Sequence record: OR637327.1
Length of the DNA stretch: 64,000 bases
DNA from: Klebsiella phage iPHaGe-KPN-11i
Direction: 5' to 3' (one strand)
Part shown: positions 45,812 through 55,430 of the stretch, piece after piece
Numbering within the stretch: the first letter of the stretch is position 1
Layout: each line of letters opens with the position of its first letter
Position numbers and translations under genes: made by a program
Notes under the pieces: generated by a model
Told to the model about the DNA's origin: nothing
Databases searched by the model: none
Seen by the model: only the letters and a program-made list of their open reading frames with translations

Positions 45812-46663
45812 CTACATTAAATCGTTCAGTGTTAAAGGGAATGTATTTACGTCGCGTTTCTGGTAGTTGCACACGTAGACTTCTTGCGTTTTGTTTTGCT
45901 CGTAAGAGTCGGTATGCTGGCCTAACAGATACTTTTTATCCAGATTATGAACGCGGTATTTCTGCATCCATTCAATCAGGATATCATTTTGTTTTCCGGC
46001 ATGGTGAGTCACGTTGGACAAACCAAACCAAATACCCCGCTCATGCAGGGAGTCAAGGAAAGCATATAACTCGCGTTCGTGATCTGCGTTCCAGAATTTG
46101 TTATACACCGCATCAGTGATCAGATACGGAGGATCGCAATAAACAAAATCGTTATCGTTGATTTCAATATCAGAGTATGAACCAGAACGAAATTCAATTC
46201 CTGTCACATTCTTTTTGAAATGTTCGAAACGTTTTTCTGTCATAAAGTTGAGGGTTCGTTTTCCTACAGCAGCGTTAAAATCGCCTTTGTCGTTTGTCCG
46301 GTTAACGTTGCTGAATGAATGCAGGATCAGGACATAGAGCCATAAAGGATCTTTATTCTGGTTGTATTCATCACGGAATTTCAGATACTCTTCTTTCTTG
46401 TCTTTCCCCAGCCCCTTCGATGCAATCAATTCTCTCACCGGAGACAGGTCAGGAAGCGTTTTAAGACGTTCATACATATCAATCAGCGTCTTATCGTAAT
46501 CGTTGCTTAGAACTGGTTTAGGGACGTTTAACGACACACTAAGGCCACCACAAAAACAATCAATGAAACGCATGTATGAACTTCTTTCGGGGAACAGCTT
46601 GAATAGTTCAGGTAATAGCGATTGCTTGTTACCTGTATACGGAATAACACCCAAATAACTCAT
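45812..46663 (-). CDS. dam: DNA adenine methyltransferase (T4 Dam-like, GATC family)
   Basis: YTGNKQSLLPEL, FCGGLSVSLN and the DPPY motif (VYCDPPYLIT) match T4 Dam closely. Confidence 0.9.
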   Translation of the reverse strand: MSYLGVIPYTGNKQSLLPELFKLFPERSSYMRFIDCFCGGLSVSLNVPKPVLSNDYDKTLIDMYERLKTLPDLSPVRELIASKGLGKDKKEEYLKFRDEYNQNKDPLWLYVLILHSFSNVNRTNDKGDFNAAVGKRTLNFMTEKRFEHFKKNVTGIEFRSGSYSDIEINDNDFVYCDPPYLITDAVYNKFWNADHERELYAFLDSLHERGIWFGLSNVTHHAGKQNDILIEWMQKYRVHNLDKKYLLGQHTDSYEQNKTQEVYVCNYQKRDVNTFPLTLNDLM

Positions 46664-46968
46664 AGTTCACTCAGTCCTTTCTCAAATAAGGCGATCGTTT
46701 CGTACTTATACCCACGATTCACCACGAAGCAATGATTTTCGCCTAATTTCTCAAGCATTGCAATAGCACGGTGCTCATCTTTTTTATCTTTCAGCAGATA
46801 AGCAATTCGAACAACCTCTTTTAGTGTCGCGTTGTCCACCTGTTCCAACTTGAACCCGTAGCCCACCAACTTACAAAAAAGCCCCTTGCGAGCGACAAGG
46901 GGCTGATTGTTGTAGAAGACTACTGATCCGTTATCGTTGGCGCGGATATTAAATCCTTGCTCGCTCAC
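46660..46968 (-). CDS. hypothetical protein
   Basis: A 102 aa ORF with an ATGA overlap into dam. Confidence 0.45.
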   Translation of the reverse strand: MSEQGFNIRANDNGSVVFYNNQPLVARKGLFCKLVGYGFKLEQVDNATLKEVVRIAYLLKDKKDEHRAIAMLEKLGENHCFVVNRGYKYETIALFEKGLSEL

Positions 46969-48382
46969 GGATAACCCCTACTGTATCGGAGGTGTTTAAT
47001 ACACCGTTCTCGTAATACGTAATCATCGCATCACGCCACCCGTCAGGAATCTCAGTTTCCAGAGTGTCGATTGTTTTGAATTCCACACCGTTAGTGATGG
47101 TCATCAGCAAACCTTTCTTACTCTGTTTCCATTCGGAACCTTTCGGGCATTTGTAAACGCCTTTCCACACACCATTCACGCGGATAGCGCACAGTTTTTC
47201 AGCATACTTTTGAGTGTCGCGGGTAACTTCTTGCAGCAAACCGCCGCCCATACCGAACGCGATATTCTCACTCGCCCACTTGTTCGCTTCCATCCAACTT
47301 AACACACGGTTGATTGTTTCAGGCCCGTGGATCTCGTCGCCTTGGATGATTCGAACTGAATTATGCAGAACTTTGTAACCTTTGCTGTTTACGGTGTATC
47401 CGAAGATTTCGCCCAGTTTACGCAGGGTGTACATGATGTTATCAATCATATCACCGGAATCAGGACGAACAACCAGAGTACCACCCGCAGCAATGATTTG
47501 CTCTTTATATTCAGCAATGCGATCTACAGCGCCTTTGTAGTCCCAGGAATCGTACACGCAAGCGTAGAACCCTGTACCAAACATTTCGATGCTGTTTTTG
47601 TATGCTTCGTCTTCGTTCTCTTTACCGTAGGAAATCGTAGTCGAATGTTCGCGAGCCGGAATTGAAACACCGATTGCTTCGACGTTTTCAACTTCATCAA
47701 ACAGAGTTTGATAGTCCGCAAACAGACTGATTGCCATAATCATACCTTCAACGGTATCAGTCCCGATGAAGTTATAGAGGTGTGCCAGCCCACCAATACC
47801 CGCAGATTCAGCAGAGGTCGCGCCACGCGCCCCAAAATCATGCAGACGTGTACCCAGTGTGATGTTATATGCTTCACCAGTCAAGTCAGAAGTCATATCC
47901 AGGTAGTGTGCCAGAACCTTTTTACACTCACGCGATAATGTAGACACGGATGACGGATACCAGATACCGCGAATCGTCATTGTCTCAAGCCACCCAGCCA
48001 GCCATGAAAATTCATGTTCGGCGTACACAGTCGCAACGGCGTTTTTAACCGGAACAACCGTACCTTCTGGGATCGCACGGAAAGTAACAGGGACATAACC
48101 CAGTTCTGCGATCTTCTTCCACCCTTCGTAGTTGAAAATCTCTTTCCCAAAGTGCTTACGGTAAAGTACCCGTGCCAACTCAACTTGTTTCATGGTAATA
48201 GGTTCAGCAAGAACCCGCGCAACGAAGTTAACGCCAGCGGTTACTACTTCATCAAACTTACCACCGCGAGATTCAATATAGAACATCGCTGCATCAGTGC
48301 CTTGTGGATACTGCATCCAGTGGGACACTTTATAGGAATCAGTTGAGGTGATCAGGCTATTCAGTTCATTAAAAGTTTTCAT
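46949..48382 (-). CDS. nadV: nicotinamide phosphoribosyltransferase (NadV/NAMPT)
   Basis: TDSYKVSHW, HDFGARGA, AREHSTT, RPDSGD, SKGYK and IAFGMGGGLLQ are all NAMPT signatures. Confidence 0.9.
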   Translation of the reverse strand: MKTFNELNSLITSTDSYKVSHWMQYPQGTDAAMFYIESRGGKFDEVVTAGVNFVARVLAEPITMKQVELARVLYRKHFGKEIFNYEGWKKIAELGYVPVTFRAIPEGTVVPVKNAVATVYAEHEFSWLAGWLETMTIRGIWYPSSVSTLSRECKKVLAHYLDMTSDLTGEAYNITLGTRLHDFGARGATSAESAGIGGLAHLYNFIGTDTVEGMIMAISLFADYQTLFDEVENVEAIGVSIPAREHSTTISYGKENEDEAYKNSIEMFGTGFYACVYDSWDYKGAVDRIAEYKEQIIAAGGTLVVRPDSGDMIDNIMYTLRKLGEIFGYTVNSKGYKVLHNSVRIIQGDEIHGPETINRVLSWMEANKWASENIAFGMGGGLLQEVTRDTQKYAEKLCAIRVNGVWKGVYKCPKGSEWKQSKKGLLMTITNGVEFKTIDTLETEIPDGWRDAMITYYENGVLNTSDTVGVIRERARI

Positions 48383-48405
48383 TTAAACGTACTCCACGTT
48401 TTGAT

Positions 48406-48819
48406 TTAAAAGATACGATCCAAACGTTCTGGATGGATCGTGTTCCAGTATTTACTCTTACAGTCTTTCCTGGATTTTTTACCATTAGAGCAGAACACCT
48501 TATGATATGTCGTCTTCTTGTGCAACTCTTTGCACGTAGGACAGGTGATCATGGTTCCTACTTTAGCGGCTTTTGCAACATCGTACAATTGTTTGATGTC
48601 CTTCTGCCGCTCGGACGTAATGACACGCCCGTTTACTTCTTTGACAACCGTTTCAGTTCGAATCGAACCATCGGAATATTTAACAGGAGTTTTGACTTGC
48701 TTCGGCGCATTTGCTTGTTGCAAAAGCCTTAGAGTTTCTCGACGTAAATTATGACCACAAAAATCATCGTCGTCATCGTCATAGCCACCCCAGCTATCAA
48801 TATATTCTGCTTCACTCAT
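48406..48819 (-). CDS. zinc-finger hypothetical protein with a poly-Asp tract
   Basis: A 137 aa ORF containing DDDDDDFCGH and CPTCK...C. Confidence 0.45.
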   Translation of the reverse strand: MSEAEYIDSWGGYDDDDDDFCGHNLRRETLRLLQQANAPKQVKTPVKYSDGSIRTETVVKEVNGRVITSERQKDIKQLYDVAKAAKVGTMITCPTCKELHKKTTYHKVFCSNGKKSRKDCKSKYWNTIHPERLDRIF

Positions 48820-48828
48820 GTTCGATCC

Positions 48829-49080
48829 TTAGTTGCTGGTCAGTAAGAAGACCCGGTTGTCGCTATAGTCGATGTAGCAATCCCACCAACCCGCACAGTT
48901 AACACCATCTTTTTCAAGGCTTATGATTTTAACGCTGGTTGCAACGTCATCATATTCATAAACCGCACCCAGTTCGTTCAGCATTGCTTCAACGTTAGCC
49001 CGTAAGCCTTTACCGTTGTGTGCTACACCATTCAGTGCCAAGCAGTAGCCAGCGCAAGTAGGTACTAATTTGATTTCCAT
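48829..49080 (-). CDS. hypothetical protein
   Basis: An 83 aa ORF. Confidence 0.45.
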   Translation of the reverse strand: MEIKLVPTCAGYCLALNGVAHNGKGLRANVEAMLNELGAVYEYDDVATSVKIISLEKDGVNCAGWWDCYIDYSDNRVFLLTSN

Positions 49081-49105
49081 GATGTTTTCCTTTTAGGTTA
49101 GTGTC

Positions 49106-49163
49106 TTGTCTACGGGAGCTATATTACCACACTCATAACTCCCGTCAACAAGTTTTTCGAATT
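49106..49163 (-). promoter_or_regulatory. PeSL-type cassette, copy 2 (near-identical to 1405-1453, in inverted orientation)
   Basis: On the - strand: ttcgaaaaacTTGTTGACgggagtt...TAATATagctcccgtagacaa. Both arms, the -35 and the -10 are conserved relative to copy 1. Confidence 0.55.
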
Positions 49164-49167
49164 ATTT

Positions 49168-49611
49168 TCACCAGGTGATGTAATAAGTCAGATCGCTATA
49201 TCCGTCACGCTTAGGATCGCTAAAGTTGGTAATACGACGCGAACCCGCGAAGGTATTGAGTAACGCAGCTTGTCGGTTGCGCTGGGTATCGAAAGTAAAC
49301 CCTTCTTCCGCCAGCCATTCACCCAGATCCGCATATGCTTTTTCGGTACATTCCTGATCCATAACCTTACCGATAAAACGTTTCATATCAAAGGTATATG
49401 CTTGTTTAGTCGGATATTTCAGGACATACTCGGAAATGTCTTTACGGGATGCTTCGACCATTTTCGCGTTGATTTCATCAACCAGTTTACGCGCACGTTC
49501 CGCCAGTGTCGGGCTACGTCCACAGCGGGGATCATCTTGTGTTTCGCGTTTGACCCACGATGTCCCGCTTCCCGCCTGTGCGTTCACACCGATTCCATTG
49601 ATTTCTACCAT
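49168..49611 (-). CDS. hypothetical protein
   Basis: A 147 aa ORF with a ggcgaaacataATG leader. Confidence 0.45.
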   Translation of the reverse strand: MVEINGIGVNAQAGSGTSWVKRETQDDPRCGRSPTLAERARKLVDEINAKMVEASRKDISEYVLKYPTKQAYTFDMKRFIGKVMDQECTEKAYADLGEWLAEEGFTFDTQRNRQAALLNTFAGSRRITNFSDPKRDGYSDLTYYITW

Positions 49612-49680
49612 TATGTTTCGCCTTTTTTAATGCCTCTTCAACAGAGAGGCGTTCGTAATTACGTGATTGTTCGGGAGTTA

Positions 49681-50262
49681 TCACCAGAGAAAATTCAGAG
49701 TAGGAGGTTTAGTGTTAATCCCTAAAGTATCGCAGACTTCATCCAGAACTTTTTGATTCCAAAGATTGAACGTTGGAACCTTATACAATCTGGCAAGCCT
49801 TGCAGCGATCGCAGTACCACCTTTAACACAAAAATCTTTCTCTACCGCCCAGAATAGAACAAAATCTGTAGGTTTGTCCAGGTTTTCGGTTAATACCTGC
49901 ATTGAATTGCGAGCGTATCGGCGTTGTGTCCATTCGCTTTGGTTGTCGAAGTGTCCAGCTACCTTTCTCGCTTCGTCAGCGGCTTTGTACGTGTCGTATT
50001 CTGTATAGTCGATGATATCCTTACCATTCGAATACAACCCGTTAAAACCGTTCTCAGGGAGGATTATACGCCGTCTTTCTGGTGAGTAGTCAAACATGAA
50101 ATGGCTATCCATTCCAGGAGCACCACCAGAGTAAGCGAAGATCCCCCGATCACTTAAAGCACGTCCAATCTTTATGGCTATACTCGCGATACGTTCAGGG
50201 GGTTCACGGCTACCGATCAGGGTAGCCGTTTTTGCGTTTTCGAGAACAGATTTAAAATTCAT
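49681..50262 (-). CDS. DprA/Smf-like Rossmann-fold (SLOG superfamily) protein
   Basis: LIGSREPP....IGRALSDRGIFAYSGGAPGMDS fits the DprA/SLOG GSR...SGGAxGxD signature. Confidence 0.55.
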   Translation of the reverse strand: MNFKSVLENAKTATLIGSREPPERIASIAIKIGRALSDRGIFAYSGGAPGMDSHFMFDYSPERRRIILPENGFNGLYSNGKDIIDYTEYDTYKAADEARKVAGHFDNQSEWTQRRYARNSMQVLTENLDKPTDFVLFWAVEKDFCVKGGTAIAARLARLYKVPTFNLWNQKVLDEVCDTLGINTKPPTLNFLW

Positions 50263-51298
50263 TGTTCAGGATTGCGCCCCAGTTCTCACGAACCAGATTT
50301 GACGCTTCGTTAGTGAAGGTTTTCTTCGCCAGCGTTGGGTTTTCGAACTGTTCCAGGAAAGGCCCGTAGTTACGTTCGATTTCTTCCAGCGCATCCTGTA
50401 CAGTCAGCCCCATCACGCGACCGAAATCTTTCGCGGTGAGATTCGCGCTGTCAATTTTGGACAGGACGTTTTTCACGCGGTTTTCAGTCAGGAAGCAAGT
50501 GAATTCGTTCAGCTTCGCTTTGTCTGTTTCTGACAGTTCAGAAGGAGCATTGAAGCGGTTCGCTTGCTTGTTCTTCTTCTCTGTGAACTTCGTCGTTTTG
50601 CATTTGATTGCAACGCGTTCACCGTTCGGCATGAAAGCAGGTTGAACAGGCTTCATCACGAAACCTTCTGCGATGTTCTCACCTTCACCATCTTTCAGCG
50701 TCATGAAGTTTTTGAACTCAGGTTCAACGCCGTTCTTTGCAGGGATCGCACCGGAGTTCGCCAGGTTAACCACCGAATCAAAGGTGATAGGAAGTGCGCG
50801 GATCTCGTCAAAAGAACCGTATGCCAGCAGTGGAGCCATTTTCAGACCTACAGCAACGGAATACGTGGCTACAACGTTATCAGGGAGGAATTCACCATTA
50901 ACGCGGATATCGAATACGTAGAAATCTTTTTCGCCGTAGTCAACATCTTTCTGGACACCACGCCCCGCAAATTCGCCGTATACCTGAACAACCAAAGAAC
51001 CAGTATCAGCATATTCCTTATATTCACAGGCATTTGCTAAAATTTCCCACAGCTTACGAACAGGTTCGGAGTATTTTGCAACTACTGGTTCACAACCGTA
51101 GAACTGTTCAGCAGGGAGAATTTCACCGCTACGTTTTGCCGGAATGACTTTGATACCGTCCGAGGTAATCAGGCTAAAATTAGCCCCGTGGATCTTTTCA
51201 CGCGCAACCCACACACAACCAGTAAAACCATTCATGATCACACCATTGATGAATTTACCTTCATAATGGTTAGTCAGAGAAGAATATTTCACAAACAT
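50252..51298 (-). CDS. rnlB: RNA ligase 2 (RnlB)
   Basis: YSSLxNHY...FI, WVAREKIHGxNFSLI and KDFGKVMGLTVQD match T4 Rnl2, including the KxHGxN nucleotidyltransferase motif. Confidence 0.9.
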   Translation of the reverse strand: MFVKYSSLTNHYEGKFINGVIMNGFTGCVWVAREKIHGANFSLITSDGIKVIPAKRSGEILPAEQFYGCEPVVAKYSEPVRKLWEILANACEYKEYADTGSLVVQVYGEFAGRGVQKDVDYGEKDFYVFDIRVNGEFLPDNVVATYSVAVGLKMAPLLAYGSFDEIRALPITFDSVVNLANSGAIPAKNGVEPEFKNFMTLKDGEGENIAEGFVMKPVQPAFMPNGERVAIKCKTTKFTEKKNKQANRFNAPSELSETDKAKLNEFTCFLTENRVKNVLSKIDSANLTAKDFGRVMGLTVQDALEEIERNYGPFLEQFENPTLAKKTFTNEASNLVRENWGAILNNEF

Positions 51299-51301
51299 AA
51301 T

Positions 51302-51844
51302 TTAACCTTTGATTTTCAGTTGTTTTTCAATTTGATACGCAGCTTTGCGTAACAGTTTCAGTTTTACTTCTGGAAGGATCACAGAACCCTTCATAAACGC
51401 ATCGAGATTTGATTTCTCGCTATTCGCGGCGCTGGTTACTGCGATCGTGTTTTCAACCGTATACCCCAGAGAAGCGTTGATTCGTTCCATTGTTCGGGAG
51501 TCAGAGCAACCGCCTTTATTGCTAAACGGTCTGCCGGAGTAAGAACATACGGGTTCACTCATTAACTTCGCCCAGTCGCTTAACGTCAGAGCAAATTGAA
51601 GGTTGCGGTTACGCGCATCATCGTTTTTACTGTTGTATGAACGAGCGACACGCAGATCGAATTCAATTTGTTTTGCACGGCGGCGGTGTTCTAACTCAGC
51701 AGGATCGAGGGATACCAAAGTTTGAACCTTTTTCGGGGATACCGTTTCCGATTCTACTGGCTTTGGTTTTGTCTCAACCTTCACCAAATCCTTTTTGATA
51801 GTCGAAGTTATCACGCCCGACCAGCGATTCATCATTGAAGACAT
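51302..51844 (-). CDS. free-standing HNH endonuclease (Mob-like homing endonuclease candidate)
   Basis: CSYSGRPF...SRTMERINASLGYTVENTIAV fits an HNH_3-type motif. Confidence 0.55.
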   Translation of the reverse strand: MSSMMNRWSGVITSTIKKDLVKVETKPKPVESETVSPKKVQTLVSLDPAELEHRRRAKQIEFDLRVARSYNSKNDDARNRNLQFALTLSDWAKLMSEPVCSYSGRPFSNKGGCSDSRTMERINASLGYTVENTIAVTSAANSEKSNLDAFMKGSVILPEVKLKLLRKAAYQIEKQLKIKG

Positions 51845-51853
51845 ATAAACCCC

Positions 51854-52198
51854 TTACACCAAACCCGCTTCCTGGAACGCCAGCGCCATAGCGCCGTTGA
51901 TTGCTTTACGTTTGTTATCTGGACGCGGATCGCGTTTAGCTTTTGTCTTAGGCTTACGCTGTTCTTCACGATGTTTATTGATGTACACACGGCGCAGAGC
52001 ATGTTTCACTTTTGGATTTTCTGCGCGGAAAGCACGAATTCGCTCAATTTCCTGAACAATTACGTAAATATCGCCGTTATCGAGCATGTGCTCACGGGCG
52101 ATCTGTGCATAGCCCAGTTTCAGATCATTGAATTTGAAATGAATCTGTACTTTTTCCTGCTGGCTAACTTCGCTGATATTACGCTGAACGATTTTCAT
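51854..52198 (-). CDS. hypothetical basic protein
   Basis: A 114 aa ORF with an aaaggaaag RBS. Confidence 0.45.
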   Translation of the reverse strand: MKIVQRNISEVSQQEKVQIHFKFNDLKLGYAQIAREHMLDNGDIYVIVQEIERIRAFRAENPKVKHALRRVYINKHREEQRKPKTKAKRDPRPDNKRKAINGAMALAFQEAGLV

Positions 52199-52889: not shown

Positions 52890-53055
52890 TTTGATCAGCC
52901 TCATTCGCAATACAGATCGCCATGAAGGTAAACATAACCCCCAACGCCACCATCCAGATCGCGGTTAAATCTCCGTACATGGAAGAATAACCACCCATCA
53001 CTTCAACGCGATATCCCAGCAAGAAAACGAGATACGCTAACACCTTATCTTTCAT
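52882..53055 (-). CDS. small membrane protein (57 aa)
   Basis: It is below the ORF-track cutoff. It has a GAGGA RBS, two hydrophobic segments, and fills the gap between genes. Confidence 0.4.
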   Translation of the reverse strand: MKDKVLAYLVFLLGYRVEVMGGYSSMYGDLTAIWMVALGVMFTFMAICIANEADQNA

Positions 53056-53369
53056 AATTCCTCACAGAAAGCCCATGCAGCATGATAAACGCTTGCGCCT
53101 TTGTCATCGTTCATGCATACCACATCTACCGGACACACAACCCGATACAGTACCGGATCACCACCTATTGAACGTGCAGCCCTTCCAGCGTAGATCCGAG
53201 CCAGCCCGATATCAGCAGTGAAGAAAACACGATCCAGATTTTTCTTTCTGCCTTTTTCAGACAGAGTATCAGAAGCACAAGGAGGCAACAACATGCTTTC
53301 AATTCCGGCAGCAGTACATGATCCGTGATAGAACTCAACGAACTCTTTGCGGCAGTGAATGGTATTCAT
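53052..53369 (-). CDS. hypothetical protein (YHGS motif)
   Basis: A 105 aa ORF with a strong RBS (aaggagataaccATG). Confidence 0.5.
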   Translation of the reverse strand: MNTIHCRKEFVEFYHGSCTAAGIESMLLPPCASDTLSEKGRKKNLDRVFFTADIGLARIYAGRAARSIGGDPVLYRVVCPVDVVCMNDDKGASVYHAAWAFCEEL

Positions 53370-53545: not shown

Positions 53546-54379
53546 ATGAAATCATTCAAAGACTTTACGAGCCTTGATGAAGCGCTGATCACCTTCGGCG
53601 GTAAGGCTTATCCTAAATTTGGTCAGGTAGTCATCCTGGCTGGCGGTGCGGGTTCTGGTAAAGGGTTCACCCTCGAAAAGCTGTTAGGCATCGAAGGTAT
53701 CACACTGGACGTTGACGCACTCAAAAAACTGGTAATGGGTAGTACCAAACTGGCAGCAGAGATCAAAGCGAAAACTGGTCACGATGTCAAAACAATGAAC
53801 CTGAAAAACCCGGACAACGTAGCAACCCTGCATCATGTGATCGCGGACGTGTTCAACGTATCAAACAAAAACCAGGCGCGTGTTTACGCGGGTATCACAT
53901 CAGCACCGGAAGATCGTAAACCAAACCTGATTTTCGACGTTACCCTAAAAAGCATGAGTAAGCTGGCAAGTATCGCCCGTGATGTTGAAGCGCTGGGTTA
54001 TCAGAAAGAAAACATCCATATCGTTTGGGTTATGAACGATGTTCATATTGCGATGCAACAGAACCTTAAACGCGATCGTGTTGTGCCTAAAGAAATCCTC
54101 ATGGATACCCACGAAGGAGCAGCGCTCACTATGGCGAAGATCCTGAATATGGGCGACTCTCTGAAACAGTACATGGACGGCGATATCTGGATCAGTTTCA
54201 ACAAAGTAGGCATTGACAGCGAAATCAAGAAATCTGACAAAGGCGGTATGTTTGTTGTTAAGTCTAACTACATCAAAGTTAAGGCAAAAGGCAAGCCGCA
54301 AAAATCCATTGACCAGCTTGATAAAGAGTTGGTGGCTAAAGTTGCAGCATACGCACCGAAAACTGATACATGGGGTTGA
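53546..54379 (+). CDS. P-loop nucleotide kinase-like protein (GxGxGKG Walker A)
   Basis: LAGGAGSGKGFT resembles an NMP-kinase-type P-loop. The protein is 277 aa. Confidence 0.5.
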   Translation: MKSFKDFTSLDEALITFGGKAYPKFGQVVILAGGAGSGKGFTLEKLLGIEGITLDVDALKKLVMGSTKLAAEIKAKTGHDVKTMNLKNPDNVATLHHVIADVFNVSNKNQARVYAGITSAPEDRKPNLIFDVTLKSMSKLASIARDVEALGYQKENIHIVWVMNDVHIAMQQNLKRDRVVPKEILMDTHEGAALTMAKILNMGDSLKQYMDGDIWISFNKVGIDSEIKKSDKGGMFVVKSNYIKVKAKGKPQKSIDQLDKELVAKVAAYAPKTDTWG

Positions 54380-54404: not shown

Positions 54405-54428
54405 GCACACACAAACCGAGGAATTGAT

Positions 54429-54896
54429 ATGAAAAAGTTTTTGTTCGATATGGATGGTGTACTGTTCAACTGGGAAGGTTCTTTTGTTCCGATGTACGGC
54501 GACCCAGCGAGAATGCCGGAAGAAGAATTGAAAAAAGCGAAACAGGCTATATCACAAACTGACTTCTACGAAAATCTGGAACCATTACAAGAGGGCATCG
54601 ACCTGTTCTGTCATTTGAGAACTTTAGGTCAGGTTGCGATCTTAACCAGCGTAGGGAAATACAATTCCGATGCGGTAGCAGAACAAAAAAGAAAAGCGTT
54701 GATGAAGGTGTTCGGTTATCTGCCTGAATTCCACTACACCAAAAGCAGCGGAGAGAAAGCAGCATATGCGGACAAAGGTATACTGATTGATGACAGGGCA
54801 AAAGCTGTGTTGCCATTCAGAAAAGCCGGAGGTAACGCGATTCTCTTCGTTGGTAGCAAAGAAGAAGCATTGAAAGAAATCAGAAAAATTGCATAA
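54429..54896 (+). CDS. HAD-superfamily 5-prime(3-prime)-deoxyribonucleotidase-like phosphatase
   Basis: The HAD motif I FDMDGVL lies at the N-terminus. The start is taken at the internal ATG with a gaggaattgatATG RBS. Confidence 0.6.
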   Translation: MKKFLFDMDGVLFNWEGSFVPMYGDPARMPEEELKKAKQAISQTDFYENLEPLQEGIDLFCHLRTLGQVAILTSVGKYNSDAVAEQKRKALMKVFGYLPEFHYTKSSGEKAAYADKGILIDDRAKAVLPFRKAGGNAILFVGSKEEALKEIRKIA

Positions 54897-54935
54897 AAGA
54901 AAGGGAACCGCAATGGTTCCCTTTTTTGTTTATGG
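54896..54935. terminator. bidirectional rho-independent terminator
   Basis: agggaaccgcaatggttccctttttt, located between convergent genes. Confidence 0.7.
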
Positions 54936-55430
54936 TGTGTAATCCGCAAAGGAGCGGTTCACATCCTGAATAGTGATGTTCATATCGTCGTTCAGGAAAA
55001 CACTACGATATTTCCCTGCGCTATCCCATGCTTGACGATGCTTATCATTGCGGGAGATCAGAGGGCAACGGTAAGCGTGGGCTTTCAGTTCGTTCAGATC
55101 CCGACAAGTCCAGAAGTCTAAACGTACAATACCCATCTGTGCGCATACTTTATCCATGTACGCGATTTTTTGACTATTCACCCAGGACGGGCTTTTTGCT
55201 TCGTTGACGAGAATAAAACCGACTTCGCGATCGCGATAGGTCATGCCCCATTTCATCATATCCCAACCCAACACCTCGATCGCCAGTTTTTCATAGAAAT
55301 CTGTACGAACCAGGGACGATACAGCAGCTTCATATTCTGCATCTGTCATGTTTTGAGGACGTTTGCCAAATTTGGCTTCGATCGCATCGCTGAATTTTGC
55401 GAATACATCATTGAATTCAAATAGCAGCAT
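54930..55430 (-). CDS. hypothetical protein, a possible degenerate HAD nucleotidase paralogue
   Basis: It shares the TDFYEKL segment with the convergent gene at 54429 but lacks the DxDGVL motif. Confidence 0.45.
   Translation of the reverse strand: MLLFEFNDVFAKFSDAIEAKFGKRPQNMTDAEYEAAVSSLVRTDFYEKLAIEVLGWDMMKWGMTYRDREVGFILVNEAKSPSWVNSQKIAYMDKVCAQMGIVRLDFWTCRDLNELKAHAYRCPLISRNDKHRQAWDSAGKYRSVFLNDDMNITIQDVNRSFADYTP

Follow-up and report, generated by a model that had tools for sequence, protein, structure and literature searches.

A nicotinamide phosphoribosyltransferase gene and a nearby DprA-like SLOG domain gene in a T4-like Klebsiella phage

A 64,000-nucleotide stretch of Klebsiella phage iPHaGe-KPN-11i (record OR637327.1; the whole stretch is hereafter called the window) carries a nadV gene, encoding a nicotinamide phosphoribosyltransferase (Nampt), close to a gene for a small protein with a SLOG domain. 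An earlier note, made from the sequence alone, had singled out these two genes as a candidate counter-defense module. On following this up, we found that nadV appears to belong to an already described NAD+ reconstitution pathway, and that the SLOG protein is a member of a large, DprA-like phage family whose pairing with nadV is real but loose. The features of the region are collected in Table 1.

The window locus and its NAD+ salvage gene

Over bases 46000-52000, the window shares 99% identity with Cronobacter phage vB_CsaM_GAP161 and with Enterobacter phage CYPEBC003, and the genus of the source is Pseudotevenvirus, i.e. T4-like phages. The same region is common to 176 phage records, chiefly from Pseudotevenvirus and KP15-like Klebsiella phages. 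The coordinates given earlier, and the placement of the SLOG gene three genes from nadV, agree exactly with the list of open reading frames (ORFs), with exactly three ORFs lying in between. Both genes already carry labels in RefSeq, "nicotinamide phosphoribosyl transferase" for nadV and "DprA-like DNA recombination-mediator protein" for the SLOG gene, and nadV on its own is thus nothing new.

The description of the nadV product as an unambiguous Nampt was well founded. The motifs TDSYKVSHW, RPDSGD and AFGMGGG are all present in the translation, and the Pfam domains NAMPT_N (PF18127, 1.4e-23) and NAPRTase (PF04095, 8e-38) together make up the architecture of a type II phosphoribosyltransferase (PRTase). 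The protein also matches PHROG 448 (3e-164) and the NCBIfam equivalog NF006629 (459.5 bits, cutoff 405). Among solved structures, the Xanthomonas Nampt 7yqo (1.5e-105) and human NAMPT (about 1e-85) were matched, and the full-length alignment with 7yqo conserves DSYK, HDFGARG, GTDT, EHST, RPDSGD and FGMGG. The chains 9w5w and 9w5x were matched more weakly (7e-56), with 193 bits to 9w5w versus 357 bits to the bacterial Nampt; the code 9w5w appears in the paper on Namat, a phage enzyme specific for ADPR-PP. As the protein is closer to the Nampt than to the Namat structures, and as no Prs/Adps homolog was found within 10 kb of the window locus, the sequence identifies it as a Nampt using phosphoribosyl pyrophosphate (PRPP), of the kind found in pathway 2 of NAD+ reconstitution (NARP2), and not as the Namat of NARP1.

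No nicotinamide mononucleotide (NMN) adenylyltransferase (NMNAT) could be recognized in the window, in agreement with the earlier note, and tblastn with the GAP161 NatV gave no match there better than E = 2. The suggestion that the partner might be a host enzyme or one of the adjacent unknown genes is not needed, as GAP161-type genomes encode their own NatV. The search for such a gene elsewhere in the genome, which the note had advised, led in near-identical GAP161 to GAP161_126, a 351-aa protein at 76119-77174 with CTP_transf_like and NUDIX domains (NatV/NadM type), whose annotation notes a similarity to the RB16 "bifunctional NMN adenylyltransferase/NUDIX hydrolase". With the window mapped onto GAP161, natV falls outside it, about 73 kb from nadV. 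In the phage collection, NatV homologs were found in 61 records at 80% identity or more and in 115 at 60-80%, SLOG homologs in 62 and 115 records in the same two bands, and NadV homologs in 62 records at 90% or more, none at 80-90% and 117 at 60-80%. Since these counts match, the three proteins are fixed features of Pseudotevenvirus and Slopekvirus.

Two other candidates for the NMNAT step were discarded. The adjacent unknown ORFs (46660-46968, 48406-48819, 48829-49080 and 49168-49611) had no Pfam, NCBIfam or PADLOC match and are genus-restricted, NatV being distal; the SLOG protein is clearly not the missing enzyme, nor any other enzyme of the pathway.

Osterman et al. (bioRxiv 10.1101/2024.02.11.579819) reported that an Nmnat gene is present in 94% of the phages that have a Nampt of the KVP40 type, that expression of the KVP40 NARP2 abolishes Thoeris and DSR2 defense, and that NARP2 raises NAD+ even when the cell contains no defense system. 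This bears out the general statement, made at the outset, that phage Nampt pathways counter NAD+-depleting defenses. As the genome type also encodes NatV elsewhere, which completes NARP2, the nadV part of the locus is already known: from their sequences, nadV and the distal natV make up the complete, previously described KVP40-type pathway.

Genes for gp30.3 and NudE are likewise part of this genome type (GAP161, NC_019398.1, 51966-52406 and 96206-96619, outside the window). Pfam Phage_30_3 and NADAR both match one SLOG-fused protein of our survey (P0068). The NAD+/ADP-ribose genes NadV, NatV, NudE, gp30.3 and SLOG are therefore dispersed over the genome and do not form a single operon.

Table 1. 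Genes and other features in and around the nadV-SLOG region (window positions)
Feature	Position	Strand	Basis
nadV, Nampt, 477 aa	46949-48382	-	Pfam, PHROG, NCBIfam, solved structures
137-aa ORF directly upstream of nadV, Cys-rich C-terminus	48406-48819	-	PHROG 7424 (functionless label)
83-aa ORF in the SLOG-nadV interval	48829-49080	-	PHROG 7372 (functionless label)
Sigma-70-like promoter candidate	49121-49148	-	TTGACG, 16-nt spacer, TAATAT, upstream TG
147-aa ORF in the SLOG-nadV interval	49168-49611	-	PHROG 7671 (functionless label)
Stand-alone DprA-like SLOG domain protein, 193 aa	49681-50262	-	PHROG 768, AF2 fold, Foldseek
RNA ligase 2 (rnlB)	50252-51298	-	Pfam RNA_ligase and T4_Rnl2_C
Arr-like mini ADP-ribosyltransferase candidate, 105 aa (context gene)	53052-53369	-	AF2 and Foldseek
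Zeta-toxin/AAA_33-like P-loop protein, GSGKG Walker A (context gene)	53546-54379	+	Pfam Zeta_toxin 6e-08

Fold and pocket of the SLOG protein

The SLOG protein matches PHROG 768, "DprA-like", at 2e-61. The curated DprA models are not reached: Pfam DNA_processg_A (PF02481) scores 23 bits, below its gathering score of 29.6, over residues 6-54 only, and TIGR00732 gives 19.2 bits against a cutoff of 191. No Pfam match to LOG (PF03641) was obtained even at E up to 10. An AlphaFold2 (AF2) model built from an alignment of 40 sequences has the SLOG/DprA Rossmann fold, with a predicted local distance difference test (pLDDT) score of 94.8. We then made the structural comparison with LOG, DprA and YpsA that had been proposed. 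By employing Foldseek against the PDB, Helicobacter pylori DprA was found to be closest (E 1.5e-06, TM about 0.55), followed by ShosA (4.4e-04) and thereafter by Moco carrier proteins, TM1055 and the LOG enzymes, while YpsA was reached at 4e-02 and the match to the SLOG domain of ThsA was weak (8wc0, 1.4e-02; 7uxs, 2.2e-02). With the family profile, DprA chains were likewise retrieved (3e-05), as was a LOG enzyme (8e-03). In a viral structure library, the protein resembled phage "DprA-like" proteins (TM 0.7-0.8), and SLOG domains of the YspA/DUF2493 type were only distantly similar.

Invariant in the 40 family members are G17-S18-R19, S45-G46, G50, D52, R118 and G148-G149-T150, while G47, A48, N119 and Q122 are near-invariant (at least 90%). 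According to Wang et al. 2014 (PMC3950713), two signatures of DprA, G-S/T/A-R and F/L/Y-x-x-R-N/D, hold the flipped base of single-stranded DNA (ssDNA). The first is represented by the invariant G17-S18-R19, aligned to G-T-R of H. pylori DprA; the second mostly reads L-x-x-R-N in the family, and in the window protein R115-Y116-A117-R118-N119, with the aromatic residue shifted by one position. The LOG motif PGGxGTxxE is replaced by K-G-G-T-x-x-A, and because the near-invariant Ala153 takes the place of the catalytic Glu, the sequence does not support LOG-type hydrolytic chemistry. Judged from the model and the alignment, the pocket is DprA-like and not LOG-like. The earlier note had also considered that the protein might be a conventional DprA with ssDNA-binding features only. 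This stands in part, as the base-pocket motifs of DprA are kept, and fails in part, as the DprA cutoffs are missed and the partners of the family, described below, are related to ADP-ribose.

Family, fusions and gene neighborhoods

By tblastn, the SLOG family was found in 1,097 out of 50,697 phage records, distributed over T4-like, Pakpunavirus, N4-like, T5-like, Phi92-like and jumbo phages. When 1.84 billion representative proteins were searched with the family profile, 6,756 SLOG clusters were retrieved at E<=1e-3, with 3,012 of these at E<=1e-30. Many of the 150 best-scoring representatives exceed the length of one domain, and 20 such proteins were scanned for fusion partners; the relatives with fusions score between E 1e-52 and 1e-59 against the family profile. 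The partners were NADAR (5 of 20), Macro (3), DUF4326 (3), MazG (1) and a RecJ-type DHH/DHHA1/OB arrangement (1), with no recognizable partner domain in the remaining nine. One single protein, Macro-NADAR-NADAR-DUF4326-SLOG, is counted under three partners, and two more DUF4326-SLOG fusions are those of L023 and P0039. The window protein itself is unfused, and no homologs of Macro, NADAR or DUF4326 were detected within 10 kb of it.

On the strength of fusions with Macro, NADAR and DUF4326, Iyer et al. 2022 (PMC9503650) assigned the SLOG domains of viruses to an NAD+-ADP-ribose network, with a predicted function in sensing or degrading derivatives of ADP-ribose. As the same partners recur here, the association called plausible but undescribed in the earlier note is already described at the level of the domain network, and the window protein is a member of a family already predicted to belong to it.

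Some giant proteins of 1,459-1,581 aa carry a SLOG domain near residues 220-640 (L083 9263-14008, P0064, P0065 and P0119). In the one that was scanned (L083) no other Pfam domain was recognized. These may be polyvalent or injected proteins.

The neighborhoods were analyzed in three scans of IMG/VR. The first consisted of 80 loci ranked by similarity to the window SLOG protein (33 lineages), the second was seeded on a Pakpunavirus SLOG, and thereby biased, and the third on the most consensus-like family member. Pooled, these gave 235 loci in 100 lineages, a lineage being defined by at least 60% SLOG identity (Table 2).

Table 2. Partner genes near SLOG family members in the pooled set (lineages out of 100)
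Partner	Within 10 kb	Within 3 kb
NadV/Namat	15	8
Macro	11	7
Prs/Adps	9	4
NADAR	6	6
DUF4326	6	4
Rnl2	6	5
NatV	2	1

In the first 80 loci, NadV was present within 10 kb of SLOG in eight loci of two lineages, seven of the eight coming from the same phage group, and the pairing was at that stage put down to mere genus synteny. This was revised after Stenotrophomonas phage Ps15, the Pakpunavirus loci and the two further scans. The consensus-seeded scan alone has NadV in 8 out of 52 lineages. The distance between NadV/Namat and SLOG is at most 1.5 kb in seven lineages, and seven out of 15 NadV lineages at this distance gives a binomial p of 0.004 against uniform spread. Within 3 kb, the observed 8% of lineages compares with a rough chance expectation of 1-2%, which takes NadV to be present in 25-33% of medium and large phages and genome lengths to be 90-170 kb; the range given by Iyer et al. 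2022 for NadV carriage in medium and large phages is 22-33%. In an unsupervised ranking of 2,895 neighbor clusters from the first 159 loci, Macro came first and NadV second by number of lineages. At least one NAD+/ADP-ribose partner was found nearby or fused in 28 lineages. A locus scan seeded on NadV returned four close relatives only and was uninformative.

The pairing recurs in unrelated phages, namely Menderavirus Ps15, Pakpunavirus and the metagenomic L117, L108 and L125. In Ps15, NatV-NadV is separated by a terminator and four small genes from SLOG, which is 1.5 kb away, and in L117 the order is NatV-NadV-x-SLOG. In one Pakpunavirus, SLOG is situated 1.15 kb from a NadV homolog, and the Pakpunavirus-like order is Rnl1-type RNA ligase, AAA_33/Zeta-like P-loop kinase, Adps, Namat, small ORF, Macro and SLOG. 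The preprint on NARP1 makes no mention of Macro or SLOG neighbors. With seven of the 15 within 1.5 kb (p = 0.004) the pairing is more than chance, and with NadV within 10 kb in only 15 of the 100 SLOG lineages it is not an obligate module. The features listed in the earlier note are thus confirmed, and its interpretation is supported in part.

Some of these loci deserve separate mention. Three kb upstream of NatV-NadV, Ps15 (L087 1-11046; NC_070951.1 105509-117045) encodes a protein of about 1,200 aa annotated with a poly(ADP-ribose) polymerase catalytic domain, so that a compact set of NAD+ consumer, NAD+ producer and SLOG is found in a myovirus that is not T4-like. The Pakpunavirus-like island is represented by L094 5593-10582, and also by L096, L099, L100, L108 and L109. 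An ATP-dependent DNA ligase lies a few kb upstream of it, and NARP1 is thus found here amid genes of RNA-repair type and genes for ADP-ribose processing. In the metagenomic phage L125 (8407-12801) the order is SLOG, a nucleotidyltransferase with a PolyA_pol head (CCA-adding type), a 189-aa ORF, Prs/Adps and NadV, which again puts a gene of RNA-repair type between SLOG and a NARP locus.

In T4-like phages, the tightest and most conserved physical coupling of SLOG is to RNA ligase 2. In the window, the two genes share 11 nt (50252-50262, ATGAATTTTAA) at the rnlB stop and the SLOG start, and the SLOG gene is, from this arrangement, probably translationally coupled to rnlB. Among the first 80 loci, 17 have Rnl2 directly next to SLOG or overlapping it. 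Ten of these 17 are Karamvirus-like, with SLOG proteins of 34-40% identity, and here the Rnl2-then-SLOG adjacency is kept while the gene that follows SLOG is a convergent capsid vertex gene and not the nadV string. The Rnl2-SLOG pairing was not found in the literature examined.

Concerning the remaining genes of the window locus, the 147-aa ORF gave no match in Pfam, NCBIfam or PADLOC and is confined to Pseudotevenvirus/Slopekvirus loci, and the 83-aa and 137-aa ORFs are genus-restricted. The promoter candidate in Table 1, found by consensus scan and by direct reading of the sequence, is situated in the gap ahead of the 83-aa ORF and could serve expression of this ORF, the 137-aa ORF and nadV; as counts in the promoter and terminator scan of the region were no higher than the shuffled expectation, it is a candidate only. 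The surroundings of nadV are nucleotide-metabolism genes, i.e. NrdD, NrdC, Dam and NT5C-like genes.

The 105-aa ORF heads the leftward gene string that holds nadV, with a strong sigma-70-like promoter candidate at 53511-53483 (TTGACA-17-TATAGT). Its AF2 model (pLDDT 75.9) has the rifampin ADP-ribosyltransferase Arr (9iaf, 2hw2) as top Foldseek match in the PDB (probability 1.0, E about 0.02), with cholera/LT toxins and ParT next in rank. Homologs, which some databases call "ADP-ribosyl transferase", have 65-99% identity across the T4-like phages that infect Enterobacteria, Acinetobacter and Proteus, and the invariant residues are H15-G16, Y60, R63, A64 and E103. From the model, it looks like a minimal Arr-type ADP-ribosyltransferase and a possible NAD+ consumer near nadV. 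The P-loop gene with a GKG motif, listed in the earlier note, was confirmed at its position; it matches PHROG 5268, whose label is functionless, and no solved structure by sequence. It was considered as a relative of the kinase in the Pakpunavirus NARP1 island, and no similarity was detectable. Both genes are given as context, and no membership in a nadV module is claimed for them.

Following the P-loop gene are two divergent NT5C/HAD-like genes at 54417-54896 (+) and 54930-55430 (-), in RefSeq named 5'-3' deoxyribonucleotidases, the first of which alone has a weak Pfam NT5C match (7e-04). The ORF at 51302-51844 (-) matches PHROG 4592, "Srd, decoy of host sigma70" (2e-73), and over residues 57-147 also HNH-endonuclease PHROGs (3e-21).

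Interpretation and comparison with known systems

The reading that we favor, and hold with moderate confidence, is that nadV acts within the known NARP2 pathway, while the SLOG protein is a separate, DprA-like member of a dispersed toolkit for conflicts over NAD+ and ADP-ribose. NadV would take the PRPP plus nicotinamide route and together with NatV rebuild NAD+, so that the phage could outrun NAD+-depleting defenses. The SLOG protein takes no part in NAD+ synthesis. Its GSR loop, GGAxGxD loop, R-N helix and GGT loop make up the pocket that in DprA holds one nucleobase with its phosphates, and it may bind the moiety of an adenine nucleotide or of ADP-ribose, whether as a free molecule or on single-stranded nucleic acid. 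It could be a recognition or processing partner of enzymes that remove ADP-ribose (Macro, NADAR, DUF4326) and of end-joining ligases, in a toolkit whose members would cluster loosely with the NAD+ reconstitution genes. Its role might equally concern small molecules, as a sponge or hydrolase of ADP-ribose-derived signals, or nucleic acids, i.e. ADP-ribosylated or broken strands; the ligand, binding as opposed to cleavage, and an anti-defense phenotype are what we infer here.

Several observations weigh against this interpretation. The closest proteins of known function, DprA and ShosA, are ssDNA binders with a part in recombination and none in NAD+ biology. Besides D52, no invariant acidic residue is available in the family for catalysis. 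The isoelectric points of the family are mixed (4.9-9.7), which speaks against a uniform nucleic-acid-binding surface and made them uninformative as a test of nucleic-acid binding. In the sample seeded on the window protein itself, NadV occurs in just 2 out of 33 lineages, and for one scan out of three the seed protein was picked for its NadV adjacency. Furthermore, lineages set at 60% identity are not fully independent, as the Pakpunavirus-like phages of about 90 kb may share their gene order by descent, and nadV and SLOG are both found in early or accessory regions, where unrelated auxiliary genes pile up. NatV, lastly, was seen in near-identical genomes and not in the source genome of the window.

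A more far-reaching version, which we consider improbable, makes the SLOG family a hitherto unrecognized third component that travels with NARP1 or NARP2, Macro/NADAR and RNA or DNA ligases in an "ADP-ribose clean-up and recycling" island. Its base pocket would recognize ADP-ribosylated or adenylated single strands, or cyclic ADP-ribose (cADPR) signals; Macro/NADAR would free the ADP-ribose, the ligase would reseal the strand, and NARP would return ADP-ribose and nicotinamide to NAD+. If true, such an island would counter both NAD+-depleting defenses and those of the DarT/CmdT type, which ADP-ribosylate nucleic acids.

The rival explanation closest to the original proposal is that NadV and SLOG form a dedicated counter-defense pair, in which SLOG sequesters or destroys ADP-ribose-derived signals, e.g. 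the cADPR isomers of Thoeris, while NadV restores NAD+, or in which SLOG releases ribose-5-phosphate from AMP or ADP-ribose for synthesis of PRPP and NMN. The seven lineages with at most 1.5 kb between SLOG and NadV/Namat, unrelated phages included, are in its favor, and a structural relationship is detectable (E about 1e-2) to the SLOG domain of ThsA, which is a cADPR receptor. The Smf/DprA-annotated ORF83 of phage DruSM1, the sole phage protein of this annotation for which there is genetic evidence, is needed for full infectivity on hosts with AVAST type III, as seen from its deletion (bioRxiv 10.1101/2024.04.14.589459), and has been modeled as an AMP phosphoribohydrolase (bioRxiv 10.1101/2025.06.06.658234), while Iyer et al. 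propose that viral SLOG domains degrade signals of the cADPr type (PMC9503650). The distribution of the two genes nevertheless makes a dedicated pair unlikely: NadV is missing within 10 kb in 85 of the 100 SLOG lineages, and at least 106 Klebsiella phage records have SLOG and no NadV homolog (303 versus 197 records). In T4-like phages the tightest coupling is to Rnl2 instead of NadV, the catalytic Glu of LOG is an Ala in this family, similarity to the ThsA SLOG is far below that to DprA, and CAjan, a Seuratvirus related to DruSM1, had no match to the SLOG family profile.

Quite unlikely, in our judgment, is a minimal DprA-type binder of single-stranded nucleic acid that acts with Rnl2 and repair enzymes on broken or modified RNA or DNA, the proximity of nadV being accidental. 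The top sequence and structure matches, DprA and ShosA, are indeed ssDNA binders by experiment, and the flipped-base motifs G-S-R and x-x-R-N of H. pylori DprA are invariant or nearly so; the adjacency to rnlB persists in Karamvirus-like phages despite their different downstream context, and recurrent neighbors include RNA ligases, a DNA ligase, PhoH, a metallophosphoesterase and a CCA-adding-type nucleotidyltransferase, to which the RecJ fusion can be added. What speaks against it is that the protein misses the cutoffs of the curated DprA models, that it has neither a SAM nor a DML1 domain, and that the window protein has Arg, not Phe, Leu or Tyr, at the first position of the second DprA motif. 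In addition, the ADP-ribose hydrolases NADAR, Macro and DUF4326, for which a pure recombination mediator has no need, predominate among the fusion partners, and the Rnl2 adjacency is confined to T4-like phages (6 out of 100 lineages).

Equally doubtful is a role of nadV and natV in general phage metabolism instead of counter-defense, with NAD+ supplied to phage consumers and nucleotide metabolism; the rise of NAD+ in cells without any defense system (Osterman et al.), the Arr-like candidate at the head of the same gene string and the NrdD, NrdC, Dam and NT5C-like surroundings point that way, but counter-defense has been demonstrated for this type of pathway with KVP40 NARP2 against Thoeris and DSR2, the call of a transferase comes from a medium-confidence model (pLDDT 76) with weak fold matches (E about 0.02), and both roles are compatible.

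The wider relevance of the favored interpretation comes from the size of the SLOG family, which is usually labeled "DprA-like recombination mediator" and is tied by its fusions and neighborhoods to NAD+/ADP-ribose conflict genes. Finding the ligand or substrate would provide an annotation for thousands of phage genes, and could expose a new signal-quenching mechanism or a repair route for ADP-ribosylated nucleic acids. Tractable host-phage pairs are at hand, as GAP161-like phages infect Cronobacter, Enterobacter and Klebsiella.

The NadV-NatV salvage pathway of KVP40 was reportedly described by Lee et al. in 2017. The genes studied here share with it the Nampt domain architecture (NadV is 47-49% identical to that of KVP40-like Vibrio phages), a bifunctional NMNAT-Nudix partner (38-40% identical to the protein of KVP40-like Vibrio phages) and the lack of an Adps gene. 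They differ in being about 73 kb apart, whereas those of KVP40 were studied as an operon. NARP1 differs by the Prs-like Adps adjoining its PRTase, which is absent at the window locus and present in Pakpunavirus-like loci.

DprA/Smf, as represented by H. pylori DprA (PDB 4LJR and 5MLL), has the Rossmann fold in common with the SLOG protein, as well as a base-accepting pocket built from the G-S/T/A-R loop, the GGAxGxD loop, the R-N helix and a G-S/T loop. In contrast, the phage protein stays below the curated cutoffs, consists of a single 193-aa domain and is phage-encoded, and the partners of its family are ADP-ribose hydrolases and ligases, not competence or RecA genes. ShosA/PsyrA, the antitoxins of ShosTA/PsyrTA (PDB 8ZVA; PMC11961720), are structural neighbors with weak PADLOC matches and are likewise paired in the genome with a phosphoribosyltransferase; ShosA, however, comes from the host and has a SAM domain in addition, and the ShosT toxin with which it is paired is a PRTase of type I that has no relation to the Nampt fold.

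DruSM1 ORF83, compared by description only, is also a small phage SLOG with the R-N and T pocket residues and with homologs fused to DUF4326. It is reported to be closest to LOG, with an Asp two residues after the Thr, whereas for the window family DprA is the nearest relative and the residue at that position is not acidic. The SLOG domain of ThsA, the cADPR receptor of type I Thoeris, belongs to the same superfamily and binds a ligand derived from ADP-ribose; the fold match is weak, and ThsA is fused to a SIR2 effector while the phage protein stands alone.

Lastly, the viral SLOG domains of Iyer et al. 2022 resemble the present family in being stand-alone, in having relatives fused to Macro, NADAR and DUF4326, and in being enriched in medium and large phages. 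Most of those were assigned by the authors to a YpsA-like clade, whereas the closest solved relative here is DprA, and the recurrence beside NadV/Namat-Adps and RNA ligases goes unstated in that paper. Compared with this known network, our additions are modest, namely a SLOG family that recurs beside NARP1 and NARP2 genes and Macro, and its overlapping pair with Rnl2 in T4-like phages.

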